64,000 nt of DNA. Origin: a virus. The translations under genes were made by a program, and so were the position numbers. The notes beneath the pieces are model-generated. The model was not told the DNA's origin. It saw nothing but the letters and a program-made list of their open reading frames with translations, and made no database searches. The stretch lies in IMG/VR virus record IMGVR_UViG_3300031992_000044; one strand, given 5' to 3'. Each line of letters opens with the position of its first letter. Positions within the stretch are counted from its first letter, which is position 1. This document shows positions 3,120 through 54,296 of the stretch, piece after piece.

Positions 3120-3494
3120 TTATGCTACTTTTTTGTAGCGAATCAGACCCGTTGCTTCCGGATCCCATTCATAGCGAACACCTCGCATATAGAACCCTGC
3201 TATTTTACGTGCAGGCATAGACGTTACTTTTGCATGCACAACAGGTGCTGTCTTCTCCTTCTTTGGTTGGATGACTATATCTATGTGGTTCACATTGAAA
3301 CGCTGTTTCATTTCTTCACGTGTAAATGTAGTACGCTTACGGTATATCTTTATTTTTACGTACTTCTGCTTTTCAGCATCCCATACACGTTTTGTTCTAT
3401 ATTGACACGAGGTTTTAGCTCGACGTTCTTTTCTTTCTTTTTCACCGCCGAAGAACTGAGTCTTCTTTAAAGTGGATAAATTCTCTTTTGCCAT
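3120..3494 (-). CDS. Hypothetical basic protein (124 aa)
   Basis: ORF-track ORF with the TTATCAAA-ATG leader and a TAA stop. Confidence 0.7.
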   Translation of the reverse strand: MAKENLSTLKKTQFFGGEKERKERRAKTSCQYRTKRVWDAEKQKYVKIKIYRKRTTFTREEMKQRFNVNHIDIVIQPKKEKTAPVVHAKVTSMPARKIAGFYMRGVRYEWDPEATGLIRYKKVA

Positions 3495-3543
3495 TTTGAT
3501 AACAGTTTAGAGGGTTTGACATATTTTTGGGAAAATACATTTG

Positions 3544-3621: not shown

Positions 3622-4164
3622 TTATATAGCAAGCTCAGCTTTAAACTCATCCGCAACAGAAGTAATCTCAATACTTGTATTAGTATTAAACTCCTCCATA
3701 GCAGCATCGAAGTTCACCGCTTTAAGCTGCAACTCCTTAATGAGAGAAGCAATCTTAGCTGAGGTAAACACCTCATCCTTACCCATCTTAGATGCGCCAC
3801 CCTTCTTCGACTTAGTAGCCGGATCCAAAGTAGGAACCATCTTAAGCTGAGCAATAGCCTCCTTCATCTCGGTGGCCATAAAAATATTATAATTATTTGT
3901 CTTCTTAAACTTCTCCTTATCGAAAGTAGTCTCACCCATATTCAGATAGAAGAGCATACCCTTGATAAGCACAAGCTTCTCTGACATCTGCATAATCTCA
4001 TTATACAGAGCCTTGAGGTCATACTTACGGAAACCGTTCTTAACCTCCTTCGTGGACAACAAGTTGGTTGTTCGGATCTGCATCCAATTATCCTTCTTTT
4101 TCTTATCGATGTCCTTACGAATATTAATGATGTTCTTAGAGTTAAACTTTATTGATTTCGTCAT
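3622..4164 (-). CDS. Hypothetical protein (180 aa)
   Basis: ORF-track ORF with a TAA stop 8 nt before the tRNA-Gln 5' end. Confidence 0.75.
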   Translation of the reverse strand: MTKSIKFNSKNIINIRKDIDKKKKDNWMQIRTTNLLSTKEVKNGFRKYDLKALYNEIMQMSEKLVLIKGMLFYLNMGETTFDKEKFKKTNNYNIFMATEMKEAIAQLKMVPTLDPATKSKKGGASKMGKDEVFTSAKIASLIKELQLKAVNFDAAMEEFNTNTSIEITSVADEFKAELAI

Positions 4165-15189: not shown

Positions 15190-15259
15190 AGCGAGTGTGG
15201 GACTCGAACCCACCAGTTTACAGATTTACTGAAACTTACCGACTGCGAACAGACTCGCT
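15190..15259 (-). tRNA. tRNA-like gene with a non-canonical central region (possible pseudogene)
   Basis: Perfect acceptor AGCGAGT/ACTCGCT and T arm GTGGG-TTCGAGT-CCCAC. No standard D stem. The anticodon region folds as AGTTT-(12-nt loop CAGTAAATCTGT)-AAACT. Confidence 0.4.
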
Positions 15260-16044
15260 CCACCCACTTAGGTAGGGTTCACCGACTTCACGCTGCCTCC
15301 TTGAGACCCGTGTAGTCAACGATATTATAATCGCCGTTTAAATTTATATCAAAGCGTTTAATGTCTTACTTTCCACTGCTGTCAAATCCAGTCAGGCCCA
15401 TAATGCCCACATACGGCCTACGAGTGGGCTGCGCAGATAGTCACCCCTTATTCGCTCTATGTGACAGATAAAACTTGGGACTTGCCGTGGACCTGGAGGG
15501 ATTCGAACCCTCGTCCAACAGCTCATTCTGGGACACGCTAAGATTCTTGTGTAGAACGTTCTGATGATCGGTCAAAACATTCAATTTAAGGCTATTTTCA
15601 GGCTCTCTGAGACGTTTTCTAGGCTTTTGTGGGTAGCTATTCCACTCAAGCTTTAAAATGGCTTAGAAAGGCTTATTTTAGCCTTAAATAAAGGTTGAAT
15701 ACGTTGGTCTACCACTGGCTCGAAGGCTCACAATAGGGCGTATTCGCATTCTTGAAACTGTTTTACAGCAAAAGCTGACTCTATGGTTCAGTAAAACTCA
15801 TAGTTCTTGATCTAATGCCCACATATTATTACACCGTGTGGACGGTGGTATCACCCCGTGGCACTGGCTCAAAGGCTCGGACCTAGATTGCGAGTGTCGC
15901 TCCCTGTCGGACTGAATATAGTTAATATAAAGGCGAACTTCAGAAACTATATTATTACCGATCTTCTATAACGTATTCTGCTTTCTTTTTATAGAGTATT
16001 GGCTCAAAGGCTCGGACTCTACGGATGATGGGTGCTCTCAGAGA
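15260..16044. ncRNA. ORF-free structured block with internal repeats; candidate noncoding RNA(s)
   Basis: No ORF of 60 aa or more. TAATGCCCACATA occurs twice (15401-15413, 15813-15825), each followed 20-26 nt later by TCACCCC. TGGCTC(A/G)AAGGCTC occurs at 15716, 15865 and 16000, and also at 5789. Hairpin AAGGCT..AGCCTT is present. Confidence 0.35.
15489..15512 (-). other. Isolated tRNA T-arm-like module
   Basis: Minus-sense GAGGG-TTCGAAT-CCCTC followed by CAGGTCC-A. No matching GGACCTG 5' strand was found in 15521-16040. Confidence 0.3.
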
Positions 16045-20725: not shown

Positions 20726-20839
20726 TTGATGTTATTCACTTGTAGAAGACCTGTCGCTTCTACTCGACCCACGAAACGCTTCGTAGTAAAATATGCAGAT
20801 TAATACTACAATGATAAAACCTACAAATAATCCACTCAT
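20726..20839 (-). CDS. Possible 37-aa single-TM peptide
   Basis: Hand-found ORF: MSGLFVGFIIVVLICIFYYEAFRGSSRSDRSSTSE. ATGA overlap with the upstream stop. Confidence 0.4.
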
Positions 20840-21102
20840 ATTTCAGAACGTTTAGCAAGATCTGTCATTATTTGTTGCGGTACAGAGTACTCCGAATGTC
20901 CACGTAATACACCATAATGTACTTTGTCGAGATGTTCAGCAATATTACACATTGCTTTTACTAACGCATCACCGTTCTTGTTGCATACTGCGAGAACGAT
21001 ATTTCCATCACTTGCTTTGAATGTGACGTGTGGCACATCACCTAAAGCATTTTCAACTTGTTTGATGATTTTCTCATCTTTTGTTACTAGCTTTTTACTC
21101 AT
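20836..21102 (-). CDS. Hypothetical protein (88 aa)
   Basis: Track ORF 20836..21204 runs through a terminator hairpin. The ATG at 21102 (MSKKLVTKDEK) lies just after it. Confidence 0.7.
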   Translation of the reverse strand: MSKKLVTKDEKIIKQVENALGDVPHVTFKASDGNIVLAVCNKNGDALVKAMCNIAEHLDKVHYGVLRGHSEYSVPQQIMTDLAKRSEI

Positions 21103-21137
21103 TTTGTTAATATTTAAGGGTTTAAAATTGATTTTCA

Positions 21138-21165
21138 AACAAAAGGCGCACTTAGAGTGTGCGCC
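21138..21165 (-). terminator. Intrinsic terminator closing the 21166-22084 ORF-free block
   Basis: Minus-sense GGCGCAC-ACTCTAA-GTGCGCC followed by TTTTGTTTGAAAATCAAT. Confidence 0.75.
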
Positions 21166-21330
21166 ATACTCATCTGTGAGGTTTTCGAAGTTCGTTGCCG
21201 CCATGCGCTTAATGGTTCGGTTTCAGCGCAATCCATACCAGAAGGGCTGTCATCCCTTGTATACTGGCCCTACTAACCATAGTTTTGACGTACTATTTTT
21301 ATCACAGGGGAGTATTGTACTTCTAATCCC

Positions 21331-21366
21331 GACATTTACATGTTTCGTCTTAATTTTCAAAGACTC
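21331..21366 (-). repeat. Conserved element copy 1 (candidate promoter or RNA 5' module)
   Basis: Minus-sense GAGTCTTTGAAAATTAAGACGAAAC (25/25 identical to copy 2), then AAATGTC after a 2-nt indel. Contains the hairpin GTCTT..AAGAC. Lies immediately downstream of a terminator. Confidence 0.5.
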
Positions 21367-21380
21367 TTCAGGGGATTTAA

Positions 21381-21413
21381 TAAAACTCCTCATATCTTCA
21401 CAGACCTGAGGAG
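21381..21413 (-). terminator. Intrinsic terminator
   Basis: Minus-sense CTCCTC-(loop)-GAGGAG followed by TTTTATT. Confidence 0.6.
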
Positions 21414-21474
21414 GAATAACTAGATAACTAAAAAAACCTAAAACTTATATGGATAATTGTTATAATGGTTCTTA

Positions 21475-21520
21475 TAAAAGGGCGGAGAGGGCCCCTTGTC
21501 CATGCTTCGGATCTCCGCCC
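21475..21520 (-). terminator. Intrinsic terminator
   Basis: Minus-sense GGGCGGAGA-(23-nt loop)-TCTCCGCCC followed by TTTTATAAG. Confidence 0.7.
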
Positions 21521-21987
21521 TGCACTCTACGTTCCTAGCATCTATAGCTGCATCACGATTCTTTACACAGATTAACCAACTGAGCATTCTGCTTTTCTTT
21601 CTGTGCGAGTGACCATACATAGATGGATTTTTGTTTGTGAGGACTAGTATCATCACCTCACAGTACCCTCTCTTTACGTCAAGCAGGGCTTTGTTTTTGT
21701 AAGGACTTGGAACGGTAGTCACCTCACTGTACACCTATTGCCTAGTGTCTTTCGACCAATGTGCTTTGTGGAGTCTTAGGTCCGATTACTCCCAGAACGT
21801 CTTTTTGAGCGTTTCAGTTTATCTTACGCACAACTTGACTACTTTTGTTTTTCAACCTTTTTTCAAACAAAGCGCGAATCAATCCACAAGGTTTTCTCAG
21901 TGTTCGTTTAATGTCATGCTGCTGAGCTACCCACATGACTAACAATACAGCTTACGATTTCCTTGGTCACGTAATACTGCATCAAAA

Positions 21988-22021
21988 GACATTTCCGTTT
22001 CGTCTTAATTTTCAAAGACTC
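21988..22021 (-). repeat. Conserved element copy 2
   Basis: The same 25-mer as 21342-21366 plus the shared GACATTT (plus-sense) flank. Confidence 0.5.
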
Positions 22022-22084
22022 ATCGGGCGCTTTGGTGAGCGCAACGGAAGAGCAGTTTTAACACTTGCTTAGGTGCTGAATAAC

Positions 22085-22282
22085 TCATAGACGAGCTATT
22101 CTTTGATACGGTGCAAGCATTGCTGCTTGCATCGGAGTTACTGCGAGCTTGATGCTCCCACACTTGGCGTATATGGATTTCTCTCTACGCCCTGTTGTGC
22201 CAGCTTTGCGGTCATGAGATATCATGATGTGGCTACCGTCTGAGCTGGCTACTGCTGATGGATTGAATCTACGTCTATGCAT
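22085..22282 (-). CDS. Possible small basic protein (65 aa)
   Basis: ORF-track ORF. Its ATG lies 1 nt after the stop of 22284..22619. Coding status uncertain. Confidence 0.4.
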   Translation of the reverse strand: MHRRRFNPSAVASSDGSHIMISHDRKAGTTGRREKSIYAKCGSIKLAVTPMQAAMLAPYQRIARL

Positions 22283-22283
22283 A

Positions 22284-22619
22284 TTAGTATTCTAACATAA
22301 ATTTCTCTAATGCTATAATCTCATAATTGAGTTGTTTCTTGTATGATATATAATCAACTCTTGTACAGTCACCTTTACAGTTTTCAAATATAGTATTTCT
22401 GCCATATTTGTATAGAATAATCATTATAATTAATCTATTTAATGAATACCTATTTTTTGTATAAAGACGATAATGTTGAGTTATATTTTGAGCTGATTCA
22501 TATCGTATTGTTGGGAGAAGATGAGCTCTTATCTTTGTTGGAGAACACATTATACTATTGTGGCTTGTTATGTATTTCTCTAACGCAGATACAATGTTTT
22601 GAAATGTATCATAGTCCAT
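22284..22619 (-). CDS. Hypothetical protein (111 aa from MDYDTF)
   Basis: Track ORF 22284..22715. The ATG at 22619 carries a GAAATCAATCACCAATAAT-ATG leader like that of 23635..24042. Confidence 0.5.
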   Translation of the reverse strand: MDYDTFQNIVSALEKYITSHNSIMCSPTKIRAHLLPTIRYESAQNITQHYRLYTKNRYSLNRLIIMIILYKYGRNTIFENCKGDCTRVDYISYKKQLNYEIIALEKFMLEY

Positions 22620-22730
22620 ATTATTGGTGATTGATTTCGAAGAAAGAACCGACACAATCTTTTGGATTGTACAATTGGCGACTAGCCCTACCAAGTGGCT
22701 CATGTGCCGGTTCAAGTGAGGAAATAGAGT

Positions 22731-22762
22731 GTGCCCAGCTCTTTAACGTGGCTGGGCTTTAC
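22731..22762 (-). repeat. 32-nt identical hairpin element, copy 2
   Basis: GTGCCCAGCTCTTTAACGTGGCTGGGCTTTAC is identical to 24072-24103. The stem is GCCCAGC/GCTGGGC. Confidence 0.8.
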
Positions 22763-23634
22763 TTTGTTATTTGAATTGATTTCAAATATAAAAGGCTGAG
22801 TGTTGACCTTTTGTGTTACCATTTATATCTCTTTCAAGATATTCACACACCTGTTTTTATCAAGTAGGTAACATACGGACACATTTTTATTAGAAATGTG
22901 CAAAAACTACTCTCATATTATGTAGACTAATTTCTCACTCATGGCGCTTGCGGCTTAACAGAGTGCCCCCTGAGACCAGATAAGTTTGATTTCATCTTTG
23001 TGTTTTCCTTGCGGTACTCACACAATCTGCGTATTACAGCAGAACAACCGTATTTTCATACGAGAGTGCATAACACTTTTGCTTTTGTTAAATACTTTGG
23101 ATAAAATAGATAACTAGAGCTCTGCTTGGAAGATGTGGTTATGCTTGTCACCATACTGGCTTTTGACCAGCTGCAGGTGCAACACCTTCCTATTTTCGCC
23201 TGCCAAGGCTACTCATTTCTAATAGTTTTATTTATCCTACCATTTCTGACTCAAGTAACCAGCTGGAGTTCACCATTGGTTGATGAATAGGATATTACTA
23301 ATAGATTACACACTCTATTGGACTGGCAATCCTCTGGAGTATGATTATACTATATATTGTCGGTGTTACCACCCAAGGTAGCTTAGCAAGAGCCACCGTA
23401 TACCTCTTCAACTCTGCCCGAGTATCCCAAGATATACTTATATAGTATAGCTTTCTTATGAACAGAGTCTGTGCTAAAGCACATATCTGCGCACACTCTT
23501 TCTAAAGGAGTGCACTTTATAGCATCGCTGCTTTATTCTCAAAGACAAGAAGCCTGCCTTCCATCACCGTTCACATTACTGTGCCGACTACTTTGGATAT
23601 GTCGGGTGTAGGTTTAAAGGGGCTAATGCCCAAG
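22763..23634. ncRNA. ORF-free block (~870 nt), candidate noncoding RNA
   Basis: No ORF of 60 aa or more. In 22741-22920, TAA/TGA triplets hit all three minus-sense frames. Hairpins include CGTAT-TTTC-ATACG at about 23050. Confidence 0.3.
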
Positions 23635-30566: not shown

Positions 30567-30641
30567 TGCTCCATGGTGTAGCGGTAGCACGGGAGGCTCT
30601 AACCCTCCAGGTCCGGGTTCGACTCGATGGTGGGGCGACCA
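30567..30641 (+). tRNA. Amber suppressor tRNA (anticodon CUA), Gln-like, with encoded CCA
   Basis: Acceptor TGCTCCA/TGGGGCG (two G:U pairs), then A-CCA. D arm TG-GTGT-AGCGGTA-GCAC is identical in stem to the tRNA-Gln(UUG) of this window. Anticodon arm GGAGG-CTCTAAC-CCTCC. T loop TTCGACT is present, but I could not pair a clean 5-bp T stem by hand. Confidence 0.75.
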
Positions 30642-52772: not shown

Positions 52773-54296
52773 ATGAATAATACTTTACTTAACAATCTCC
52801 AGCTGTACCGTGGACGTCGTTTCTCGGACCTGGTAGATGAAAACATGATTTCTAACGCCCTGCTGACTAGACCTCATGAGGTGTCTGGTCTGCTTTCACT
52901 GGTATTTGGTACAAAAGACGATGGTGTTTCTACTACTATCGATCTGCTCACCGGTGGTCTTGGCAAGACAATGATTATTGATAACCGCGAGTTTGAGTGG
53001 GCTGTCCAGGTTGACAGCGAGCACGCTATTAACATTCGTTGGGCAAAGTGGAACGGTAAGGAGATTACCTCCGCTAACTATATTTCTGAGACTCCTGGTC
53101 TGAATGGTACTCCTATCTACCTCGCTCTTGAAGAGCGTTGGTTCGGTCCTGGTGCAATTCTGTCATTTGACGATTACAAGTTCCAGGTTCGTGTAAACGG
53201 TGTTCCTTATCAGGACGGTAGCGCTTGGGTATATGAGGTATATGTTGTTGATGGAGCACAGGCTGCTTACATCCCCGGTGAGTTCCTGCTTCCTGGTCGT
53301 CAGGTAAGCCGTTTGGGTTCTGCTTACGAGGAGTACAGTGATGAGGCAGATATCATCAACTACCAGACTCCGTTTAAGATGCGTGGTCATCTGCAGACTC
53401 TCCGTCTGACTTATGATATTACTGGTGACGCATATTCAACGGTTCTGGCTATTGCTCTGCAGGATCCCGAGACTGGTAAGAAGAGCTATCTCTGGGCCGA
53501 TTATCAGTACTGGCTCGCACTCCGTGAGTGGAAGAAGCGTGAGGAGTATCAGCTGTTGTTCTCTAAGAGCAACCGTCTGGCTGATGGTACTTATCTTAAT
53601 AAAGGGACAAACGGCAGACCCGCACCTACGATGAGTGGTTTGTTCGAGCAGATTAGCCCGGCTAACATTCGTTACTATCATCACCTGACAGCTGAGCTGT
53701 TCGAGGATTATCTCTTCGACCTCTGCTACAATATCCTTGGTACCAATGAGCGTCGTTTCGTTGCTCTGACTGGTGAGATGGGTATTCGTGAGTTCGACCG
53801 TATCCTGAAGGAGAAGGTTGCTAGCTTCAATATGTGTGAGAATATCTTCGTTACCGGTAGCGGTCAGAACCTGACTCTCGGTGGTCAGTTCACTACCTAC
53901 AACATGACAAACGGTATCACGCTGTCTCTGAAGCGTTGTCCTTTGTTCGATAACATGGAGATGTTCCGTCAGCTCCATCCGCTGACTGGTAAACCCCTGA
54001 TGTCTTATACGTTCCTGTTCGTCAATATCAGCAACTTCGACGGTCAGGCTAACGTTGTTAAGGTTTGCCGCAAGGGTCGTGAGTTTGTTCAGTGGTACAC
54101 CGGCGGTTCTGTTTCGCCTCAGGGTTATGCAAACAGCATTAACACTCTGCGTTCTAACAGCCGTGATGGTTACCAGGTTCACTTCCTCGGTGAGGAGGGT
54201 ATTATGGTTCGTAACCCGCTGAACTGTGGTATTCTGTACTGCGACGCTGAAGATACCGAAATCTGCAACGACGGCGGTATTAATGTCGGTGCGTAA
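52773..54296 (+). CDS. Major capsid protein candidate (507 aa), no TAG
   Basis: Single uninterrupted ORF with strong GC3 and preferred-codon bias. It follows the scaffold-like gene and is followed by a GC hairpin. Confidence 0.7.
   Translation: MNNTLLNNLQLYRGRRFSDLVDENMISNALLTRPHEVSGLLSLVFGTKDDGVSTTIDLLTGGLGKTMIIDNREFEWAVQVDSEHAINIRWAKWNGKEITSANYISETPGLNGTPIYLALEERWFGPGAILSFDDYKFQVRVNGVPYQDGSAWVYEVYVVDGAQAAYIPGEFLLPGRQVSRLGSAYEEYSDEADIINYQTPFKMRGHLQTLRLTYDITGDAYSTVLAIALQDPETGKKSYLWADYQYWLALREWKKREEYQLLFSKSNRLADGTYLNKGTNGRPAPTMSGLFEQISPANIRYYHHLTAELFEDYLFDLCYNILGTNERRFVALTGEMGIREFDRILKEKVASFNMCENIFVTGSGQNLTLGGQFTTYNMTNGITLSLKRCPLFDNMEMFRQLHPLTGKPLMSYTFLFVNISNFDGQANVVKVCRKGREFVQWYTGGSVSPQGYANSINTLRSNSRDGYQVHFLGEEGIMVRNPLNCGILYCDAEDTEICNDGGINVGA

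Follow-up and report, generated by a model that had tools for sequence, protein, structure and literature searches.

What is a 25-nt element doing when it stands twice, without a single difference, in an apparently gene-free part of a viral genome? We examined a 64,000-nt stretch of viral DNA (IMG/VR record IMGVR_UViG_3300031992_000044), referred to here as the window, in which the 25-mer GAGTCTTTGAAAATTAAGACGAAAC has exactly two copies, 21342-21366 and 21997-22021, which lie on the minus strand and are identical at 25/25 positions. A sequence-only reading of the window had reported this repeat, with AAATGTC 2-4 nt after it, and had taken it primarily for a host or phage promoter. The repeat itself was confirmed, as no third copy was found in the window with up to 3 mismatches allowed (0 in 100 shuffles, 0 expected), and AAATGTC indeed lies 4 nt past the copy at 21342 and 2 nt past the copy at 21997. 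The promoter idea did not survive. From its sequence, the 25-mer makes up the 3′ two-thirds of a hammerhead, a self-cleaving ribozyme, every base being explained by core and stems, and it belongs to two hammerheads denoted A (copy at 21997-22021) and B (copy at 21342-21366). We consider it likely, with a probability of roughly 0.8, that these two hammerheads cut a long transcript into separate RNAs.

Read base by base, the 25-mer comprises G8-A9, stem II (GUCUU/AAGAC) with its 8-nt loop, G12-A13-A14, and A15.1-C15.2, the two bases with which stem III begins. The GTCTT..AAGAC hairpin noticed earlier is real and represents ribozyme stem II. The rest of each ribozyme is supplied by the flanks, in two different topologies (all features on the minus strand):

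21993..22049, minus: hammerhead A, type III, from the Rfam Hammerhead_3 match and the fold
22049-22044 with 21998-21993, minus: stem III of hammerhead A, UUCCGU paired with ACGGAA
22043, minus: U17 of hammerhead A; triplet GUU, predicted cut between 22043 and 22042
22042-22027, minus: stem I of hammerhead A, hairpin GCGCU-CACCAA-AGCGC
22026-22020 and 22001-21999, minus: core of hammerhead A, CCGAUGA (U4 replaced by C) and GAA
22019-22002, minus: stem II and loop II of hammerhead A
21325..21377, minus: hammerhead B, type I, from the Rfam Hammerhead_1 match, a custom covariance model and the fold
21377-21372 with 21330-21325, minus: stem I of hammerhead B, AAUCCC paired with GGGAUU
21371-21365, minus: core of hammerhead B, CUGAAGA, followed by stem II and loop II at 21364-21347
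21343-21332, minus: stem III of hammerhead B, ACAU-GUAA-AUGU
21331, minus: C17 of hammerhead B; triplet GUC, predicted cut between 21331 and 21330

Scanned permissively against Rfam, positions 20800-23300 matched Hammerhead_3 (RF00008) at 21992-22050 (37.8 bits, E 5.5e-6) and Hammerhead_1 (RF00163) at 21325-21377 (25.1 bits, E 0.0036). The minimum-free-energy fold of each copy is the hammerhead three-way junction with stems I, II and III (z -3.4 for A and -2.3 for B). Compared with the core pattern CUGANGA...GAA, hammerhead B (CUGAAGA...GAA) is a full match with the consensus at every core position, and hammerhead A (CCGAUGA...GAA) shows one departure, U4 to C. The two AAATGTC heptamers have different identities: at copy B it consists of the 3′ half of stem III and the C of the cleavage site, and at copy A the downstream RNA begins with it.

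The exact 25-mer was found in more than 119 IMG/VR contigs, among the matches listed, and in 91 stretches of species-representative bacterial genomes, mostly from gut Clostridia with some Bacteroidales, Elusimicrobia and others. Looking for it in the rest of the genome and in relatives had been proposed in the sequence-only reading; there are only the two copies in the window, and the element is widespread outside it. As it is exact in so many viral and bacterial sequences, the 25/25 identity reflects a family consensus. A recent duplication was considered as its source and rejected, since the flanks are unrelated: no direct repeat reaches beyond the 25-mer, and the ribozyme is all that the window and the 25-mer contigs share.

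Pairing in stem I was counted over 117 non-redundant occurrences of the exact 25-mer. With the type I register applied, 94 of them form at least 5 of the 6 pairs, using 62 distinct stem I sequences, against 12% when partners were swapped between instances. Past the 25-mer, these instances keep only a variable hairpin, GUH, and a segment able to pair with the 6 nt that precede CUGA. Covariation statistics and the custom covariance model were built on 80 trimmed instances from other loci, for which 96.8% of cells were paired and the covariation score was 0.607, versus 0.11 for shuffled alignments and at most 0.063 with partners slid; stem I served to pick these 80 instances. The two inner pairs of stem III, which played no part in that choice, were paired in 99% with 5 pair types each. 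Among family members, the cleavage triplet reads GUC in 80, GUU in 9 and GUA in 5, and about ten 25-mer instances are of type III, with stems I and III covarying. On the window, the custom model scored hammerhead B at 65.7 bits (E 2e-22) and copy A at 40.3 bits, the latter as a core-only match because its topology is wrong for the model. The next best score was 10.5 bits; thus, the window holds exactly two of these ribozymes.

The family also has a characteristic position. An open reading frame (ORF) ends at most 150 nt upstream in 78% of instances, with a median gap of 11 nt from stop codon to 25-mer, and in the wider family the stop codon of the upstream gene typically abuts stem I. An ORF starts at most 150 nt downstream in 80%, the next ORF start lying about 55 nt past the 25-mer. 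Homologues of hammerhead B with compensatory changes were identified in L001, L002, L132 and L146 (L numbers denote the loci compared here), and in L132 and L146 they stand 25-27 nt ahead of a start codon. This gene-boundary context, together with the copy B homologues before start codons, argues that the family is a processing element placed between genes or between RNAs. Arrays of three hammerheads spaced by about 400 nt were also observed in IMG/VR contigs (L032 at 428/815/1217, L075 at 12657/13059/13449 and L115 at 12510/12912/13301), in which each hammerhead appears to flank a short gene.

The position of hammerhead A was compared across related crAss-like loci, of which L129-L144 were found via homologues of an 88-aa protein, L146 via a metagenome scan and L149-L152 via a motif scan. 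In 14 of 14 distinct loci, the window among them, a self-cleaving ribozyme stands at the head of the non-coding stretch that precedes the gene, and three ribozyme classes fill this slot:

Hammerhead type III: window, L136, L138, L144, L149-L152
RAGATH-1 hammerhead (RF03152): L135, L139, L146
Twister-P1 (RF03160): L132, L141
Twister-P1 with an enlarged insert: L129, by alignment only

Most relatives carry the 5′ ribozyme only. That the slot is always headed by a ribozyme argues that 5′ processing itself is under selection, and since three classes fill it, their shared property, a defined cut leaving a 5′-OH, is probably its function. A trace of such an exchange is visible in the window, which retains AAAUGUCUUUUGAUGCAG after hammerhead A. 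In twister-bearing relatives, AAAUGUCUUUUGAUGCAG is the 3′ strand of twister stem P1 and pairs with an upstream AAGACAUUU. This P1 3′ strand, AAAUGUCUU, is still present directly past hammerhead A, which accounts for the AAATGTC found there, and we read AAAUGUCUUUUGAUGCAG at this place as a footprint of ribozyme replacement. A conserved motif of about 45 nt, GCAACCAAUAAUGACCGUAGCCAGUCGGAAGAGAGAAUUGC, was also seen directly past the ribozymes in relatives (L132 ~3933-3980, L141 ~3218-3265, L138 ~3495-3540, L135 ~4040-4085, L144 ~1715-1765, L149 and L151); covariation is seen in its helices (CCUCA.../...UGAGG in L144), no Rfam family matches it, and the window lacks it.

Close relatives of the window phage are almost missing from IMG/VR. 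Two protein-based IMG/VR scans for them returned 0 and 1 loci, the one being L123, which was found without the RNA. Contigs encoding the 166-aa protein of the window are 99.9-100% identical over the region and add no diversity. An exact 25-mer taken from the 3′ module had no match in IMG/VR, and of the loci from the metagenome scan, L146 was a true relative and the other three were chance matches inside unrelated coding sequence.

Between and after the two ribozymes, we identified the following non-coding features:

21521..21992, minus: body of the non-coding RNA predicted to be released by hammerhead A; no conserved ORF, homologous modules in relatives
~21946-21800, minus: 5′ domain of this body, conserved across two sub-families with covariation; it includes a variable hairpin with several compensatory pairs
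21939-21934 with 21918-21913, minus: hairpin of the 5′ domain, GUCAUG paired with CAUGAC (6 bp)
21926-21922 with 21900-21896, minus: candidate pseudoknot of the 5′ domain, CUCAG paired with CUGAG (5 bp)
~21834-21803, minus: hairpin of the 5′ domain with an invariant 15-nt loop, UAAGAUAAACUGAAA
21476..21520, minus: T1, terminator-like hairpin GGGCGGAG...CUCCGCCC followed by UUUU, from sequence and fold
21382..21413, minus: T2, hairpin with a U run, from the fold; directly upstream of hammerhead B
21166..21330, minus: orphan RNA of about 190 nt with T3 (body of about 165 nt), without a credible ORF
21138..21165, minus: T3, intrinsic terminator GGCGCAC-ACUCUAA-GUGCGCC followed by UUUUGUUU, from the terminator scan

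The hammerhead A RNA measures about 570 nt through T1, with a body of about 470 nt between hammerhead A and T1. The body is modular, and homologous modules were found in L129, L135, L136, L141, L146 and L149-L152. No Rfam family was detected for it, with E values of up to 10 admitted for the window and of up to 1 for the relatives. Covariation of the hairpin and the pseudoknot comes from five sequences and that of the whole 5′ domain from seven, a modest body of evidence. The order of hairpin, AAA-rich linker and pseudoknot resembles what we take to be a pistol-like layout; the resemblance has no Rfam support and we do not claim it. It is possible, as a tentative suggestion, that this RNA of about 0.5 kb represents an undescribed class of structured phage RNA that perhaps requires a ribozyme-made 5′ end, with the cleavage event being what is selected.

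The stretches downstream of the copies had been described as lacking credible ORFs, and the relatives agree with this. The longest ORF, of 98 aa with a GTG start (21734-21438), was considered as a coding remnant and rejected, as it is interrupted by in-frame TGA, TAG or TAA at the homologous positions of L146, L136 and L141. Alignments of the RNA body with relatives carry 1-2-nt indels, and reading TAG or TGA as sense gave no long conserved frame.

Terminators had been placed here from the sequence, and their positions held up in sequence, folds and the terminator scan. A G+C-rich hairpin with a U run was found at all three, for T3 by the scan itself, which picked up this one alone, and for T1 and T2 by sequence and fold. 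The T2 hairpin spans 21413-21386 and is followed by UUUU; that of T3 spans 21165-21145 ahead of its U run. T1 is conserved with compensatory changes in relatives and is the probable 3′ end of the first non-coding RNA. The apex of T2, GGUCU-GUGA-AGAUA, with a G.A mismatch and a GUGA loop, is conserved. Hairpins of this kind, with the apex GGUYY-GUGA-RRAUA followed by a U run, were also observed in L036, L044, L110, L132, L146, L149-L152 and L001/L002; their stems covary, they often lie immediately upstream of crAss-like phage hammerheads, and those of L001 and L002 gave weak BTnc231 matches. The T2-like GUGA hairpin could be a terminator or a protein-binding hairpin.

From these features we propose the following course of events. 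Hammerhead A, which starts 35 nt past the stop codon of a 65-aa gene, would cut co-transcriptionally after GUU (22043/22042), detach the upstream mRNA and stay on the 5′-OH end of the structured non-coding RNA of about 570 nt that ends at T1. T1 would stop most transcripts, and read-through RNA would reach hammerhead B and be cut after GUC (21331/21330), which would free an RNA of about 190 nt with a 5′-OH end, stopping at T3 and separated from the upstream structure. In relatives, the cut by hammerhead B would free an mRNA leader instead. Such co-transcriptional cutting may give precise, context-independent ends to non-coding RNAs and mRNA leaders in a dense RNA-gene region. The earlier fallback, that the element is a conserved RNA 5′ domain, comes close for copy A, where the ribozyme is predicted to be kept on the 5′ end of the released RNA. 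As a type I hammerhead, copy B would be cut on its own 3′ side and remain with the upstream fragment, so that it does not head its unit as had been supposed. Since copy B homologues lie directly before genes and the family as a whole sits at gene boundaries, we suggest that the RNA of about 190 nt past copy B may be an insertion specific to the window phage.

Several results weigh against two working ribozymes on one transcript. Both copies fall below the Rfam gathering scores (37.8 versus 48.5 bits for A in RF00008, and 25.1 versus 34 bits for B in RF00163). Hammerhead A is off consensus twice, with C at core position 4 and GUU rather than GUC, and the U4C change considerably reduces activity in vitro (PMC3088659). 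Two terminator-like hairpins, T1 and T2, intervene between A and B; thus, copy B would be transcribed only if both are leaky or an unrecognised promoter lies between, and by eye no convincing promoter match was seen between T1 and T2. The orphan RNA has a weak predicted structure (fold z -1.8), with no homologue outside identical contigs. The scores and the two changes in A would also fit one or both copies being decayed, inactive relics that process nothing, copy A being the likelier, and inactive hammerhead-like sequences do exist in nature (PMC3088659). We regard this as unlikely. C at position 4 recurs in L136, L138, L097, L015, L055, L059, L064 and L074, and CCGA for CUGA is also found among several otherwise perfect type I members. 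In L136, L138 and L097 the loops vary and H17 is C (U in the window), and the remaining core is intact, which is a sign of purifying selection. Type III homologues with stems I and III covarying and an unchanged core were found in L136, L138, L097, L143, L144 and L149-L152, among which L143 passes the Hammerhead_3 gathering score (49.8 bits) and L149 nearly does (48.3 bits). A viroid bearing U4C is still infectious (PMC3088659). The occupied slot in all 14 loci and the consensus core of copy B speak against decay as well. Hammerhead A is thus probably active by prediction, and it may be slow.

A promoter used by the RNA polymerase of host or phage, with TTTG as a -33-like box and TAAATGTC as a -7-like box and each copy starting a non-coding transcript, would account for the TTTG in each copy, for AAATGTC 2-4 nt past it, and for the place of copy B directly past a terminator-like hairpin, where a new start would be natural. 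However, the boxes differ from the Bacteroides consensus, as the sequence-only reading itself had said, a sigma-70-type scan placed no promoter at either copy, and the two-box arrangement was not found. In the 117 instances elsewhere, the sequence past GAAAC varies and no box is kept at a fixed spacing; only pairing and GUH are kept, which points to RNA structure and not to a DNA site. Prophage-like DNA from several phyla, whose promoter types differ, also carries the 25-mer. Moreover, the expected promoter positions here are occupied by another motif, TTGAAA(N)TCAATT, with three matches in the window, all on the minus strand, versus 0.06 expected. Each copy lies upstream of a gene, two of them directly past a terminator or where a non-coding RNA ends, and similar motifs precede genes in L129, L146, L151 and L155. 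This motif is a better candidate for a promoter or leader than the 25-mer, and at 22774-22785 it might serve the unit of the 110-aa gene, the 65-aa gene and hammerhead A. We consider a promoter role of the 25-mer extremely improbable. Very unlikely, too, is that the ribozyme pair excises the 712-nt segment 22042-21331, whose ends would be ligated, for example by RtcB, to give a circular RNA of the retrozyme or viroid type. Two same-orientation hammerheads do bracket a non-coding segment, with A cutting its 5′ side and B its 3′ side, the excised RNA would retain both ribozymes, and L146 has the same bracketed layout. The chemistry of hammerhead ends, 5′-OH and 2′,3′-cyclic phosphate, suits RtcB-type ligation. 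On the other hand, the topologies differ (III versus I), no single hammerhead would be rebuilt across the junction, the direct repeat is confined to the 25-mer, two terminator-like hairpins lie inside the segment, and most relatives have the 5′ ribozyme only. For tandem prophage hammerheads, circular or spliced products were sought and none were found (Perreault et al., PMC3088659). Separation of successive RNAs by the two hammerheads remains the reading that we prefer.

The genome carrying this locus is that of a Crassvirales (Suoliviridae-like) phage: the major head protein, encoded at 52773-54296 on the plus strand, shares 83% identity with its counterpart in cr272_1, which is assigned to Crassvirales, Suoliviridae, Oafivirinae. 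Around the ribozymes, a minus-strand block contains small genes, tRNAs and a permuted transfer-messenger RNA (tmRNA), and the minus strand is the coding strand of the neighbouring small genes. In minus-strand order, the region reads as follows:

1. 23190-22793, minus: GOLLD-like RNA
2. 22774..22785, minus: TTGAAATCAATT motif, with sister copies at 24068-24057 and 21138-21126
3. Minus: genes for the 110-aa and 65-aa proteins
4. Minus: hammerhead A
5. Minus: non-coding RNA of about 470 nt
6. Minus: T1, then T2
7. Minus: hammerhead B
8. Minus: orphan RNA
9. Minus: T3
10. Minus: second TTGAAAATCAATT motif
11. Minus: 88-aa gene

The GOLLD-like RNA (22793-23190), about 0.7 kb upstream of hammerhead A, aligned over the whole Rfam model (1-416) with 96.3 bits and E 2e-25, the gathering score being 150; none was detected in the relatives L129-L144. 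Adjoining the TTGAAATCAATT motifs, a 36-nt repeat (35/36 identical; 22765-22730 and 24106-24071, minus strand) forms a hairpin GCCCAGC...GCUGGGC that is conserved in L132, L135 and L139. The 65-aa protein (22282-22085, minus strand) has an arginine-rich N terminus (MHRRRF...) and belongs to a small family of 43 clusters, for which Pfam and PHROGs gave no match; nothing useful was obtained for the neighbouring proteins either. A tight link between this gene and the ribozyme was considered and rejected: it holds in close relatives, where the gene is directly upstream, and fails in L153 and L154. Elsewhere in the window, a suppressor tRNA with anticodon CUA was identified at 30567-30641 (plus strand; labelled tRNA-Pyl by ARAGORN). 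Only 7 ORFs of at least 350 aa were present in the 64 kb under the standard code, and in the late plus-strand genes TAG probably serves as a sense codon. The permuted tmRNA (15197-15577, minus strand) scored 49.4 bits against a gathering score of 47 and would encode the tag peptide GDYNIVDYTGLKEAA; homologues were found in L123, L150 and L152.

A promoter-looking repeat that is predicted to be an RNA catalyst holds a lesson for annotation. In three RefSeq relatives (Crassvirales, Suoliviridae), nothing is annotated under the match, and their seemingly empty stretches of 1-2 kb are dense with ribozymes and structured RNAs. What self-cleaving ribozymes do in bacteria and phages is still described as largely elusive (PMC6765202), and a slot filled by three ribozyme classes in different phages offers a clean test of it; if true, the swap of these unrelated classes would be a natural experiment in which selection keeps the cleavage event itself. 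The uncatalogued structured RNA domain and the GOLLD-like RNA in a crAss-like phage are new targets for experiments.

The hammerheads themselves are a known kind of element, found here in an informative setting. With the curated families RF00163 and RF00008 they share the core CUGANGA...GAAA, three helices, the A15.1-U16.1 and C15.2-G16.2 pairs and a GUH triplet, and their stem II, GUCUU...AAGAC, resembles the type III consensus GuCcc..gGaC of RF00008; they differ in that both fall under the thresholds and copy A has C4 and U17. RAGATH-1 (RF03152) and twister-P1 (RF03160) fill the same slot in relatives and presumably do the same job, but the hammerheads of the window are of the ordinary types III and I. 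On copy B, the RAGATH-1 model gave only 20.5 bits against a threshold of 56.3, and both window copies have a 5-bp stem II with an 8-nt loop, whereas the RAGATH-1 relatives, by reading, have a very short stem II whose loop pairs upstream. Retrozymes and viroid-like RNAs likewise have hammerheads bracketing a non-coding segment of several hundred nt. The window, however, lies in a DNA phage without long terminal repeats and has differing ribozyme topologies, and in place of identical hammerhead-bearing repeats at both ends there is a repeat of 25 nt with unrelated flanks. HDV-like theta ribozymes adjoin tRNAs in gut phages (PMC10879173) and are similar in being small self-cleaving ribozymes beside non-coding RNA genes whose ends they define, in phages that, like this one with its suppressor tRNA and other tRNAs, carry tRNA genes. 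Both the ribozyme class and the partner RNA are different here, as no tRNA adjoins either window hammerhead. Multiple hammerheads also flank prophage genes and cleave in vitro, for which processing of long transcripts was proposed (Perreault et al. 2011, PMC3088659). As in those prophages, several hammerheads of phage DNA point the same way at the boundaries of genes, with cutting into unit-length RNAs as the proposed role; in the window, the flanked segments are non-coding RNAs rather than genes, and the host genome is that of a crAss-like phage of Bacteroidota-type gut communities.

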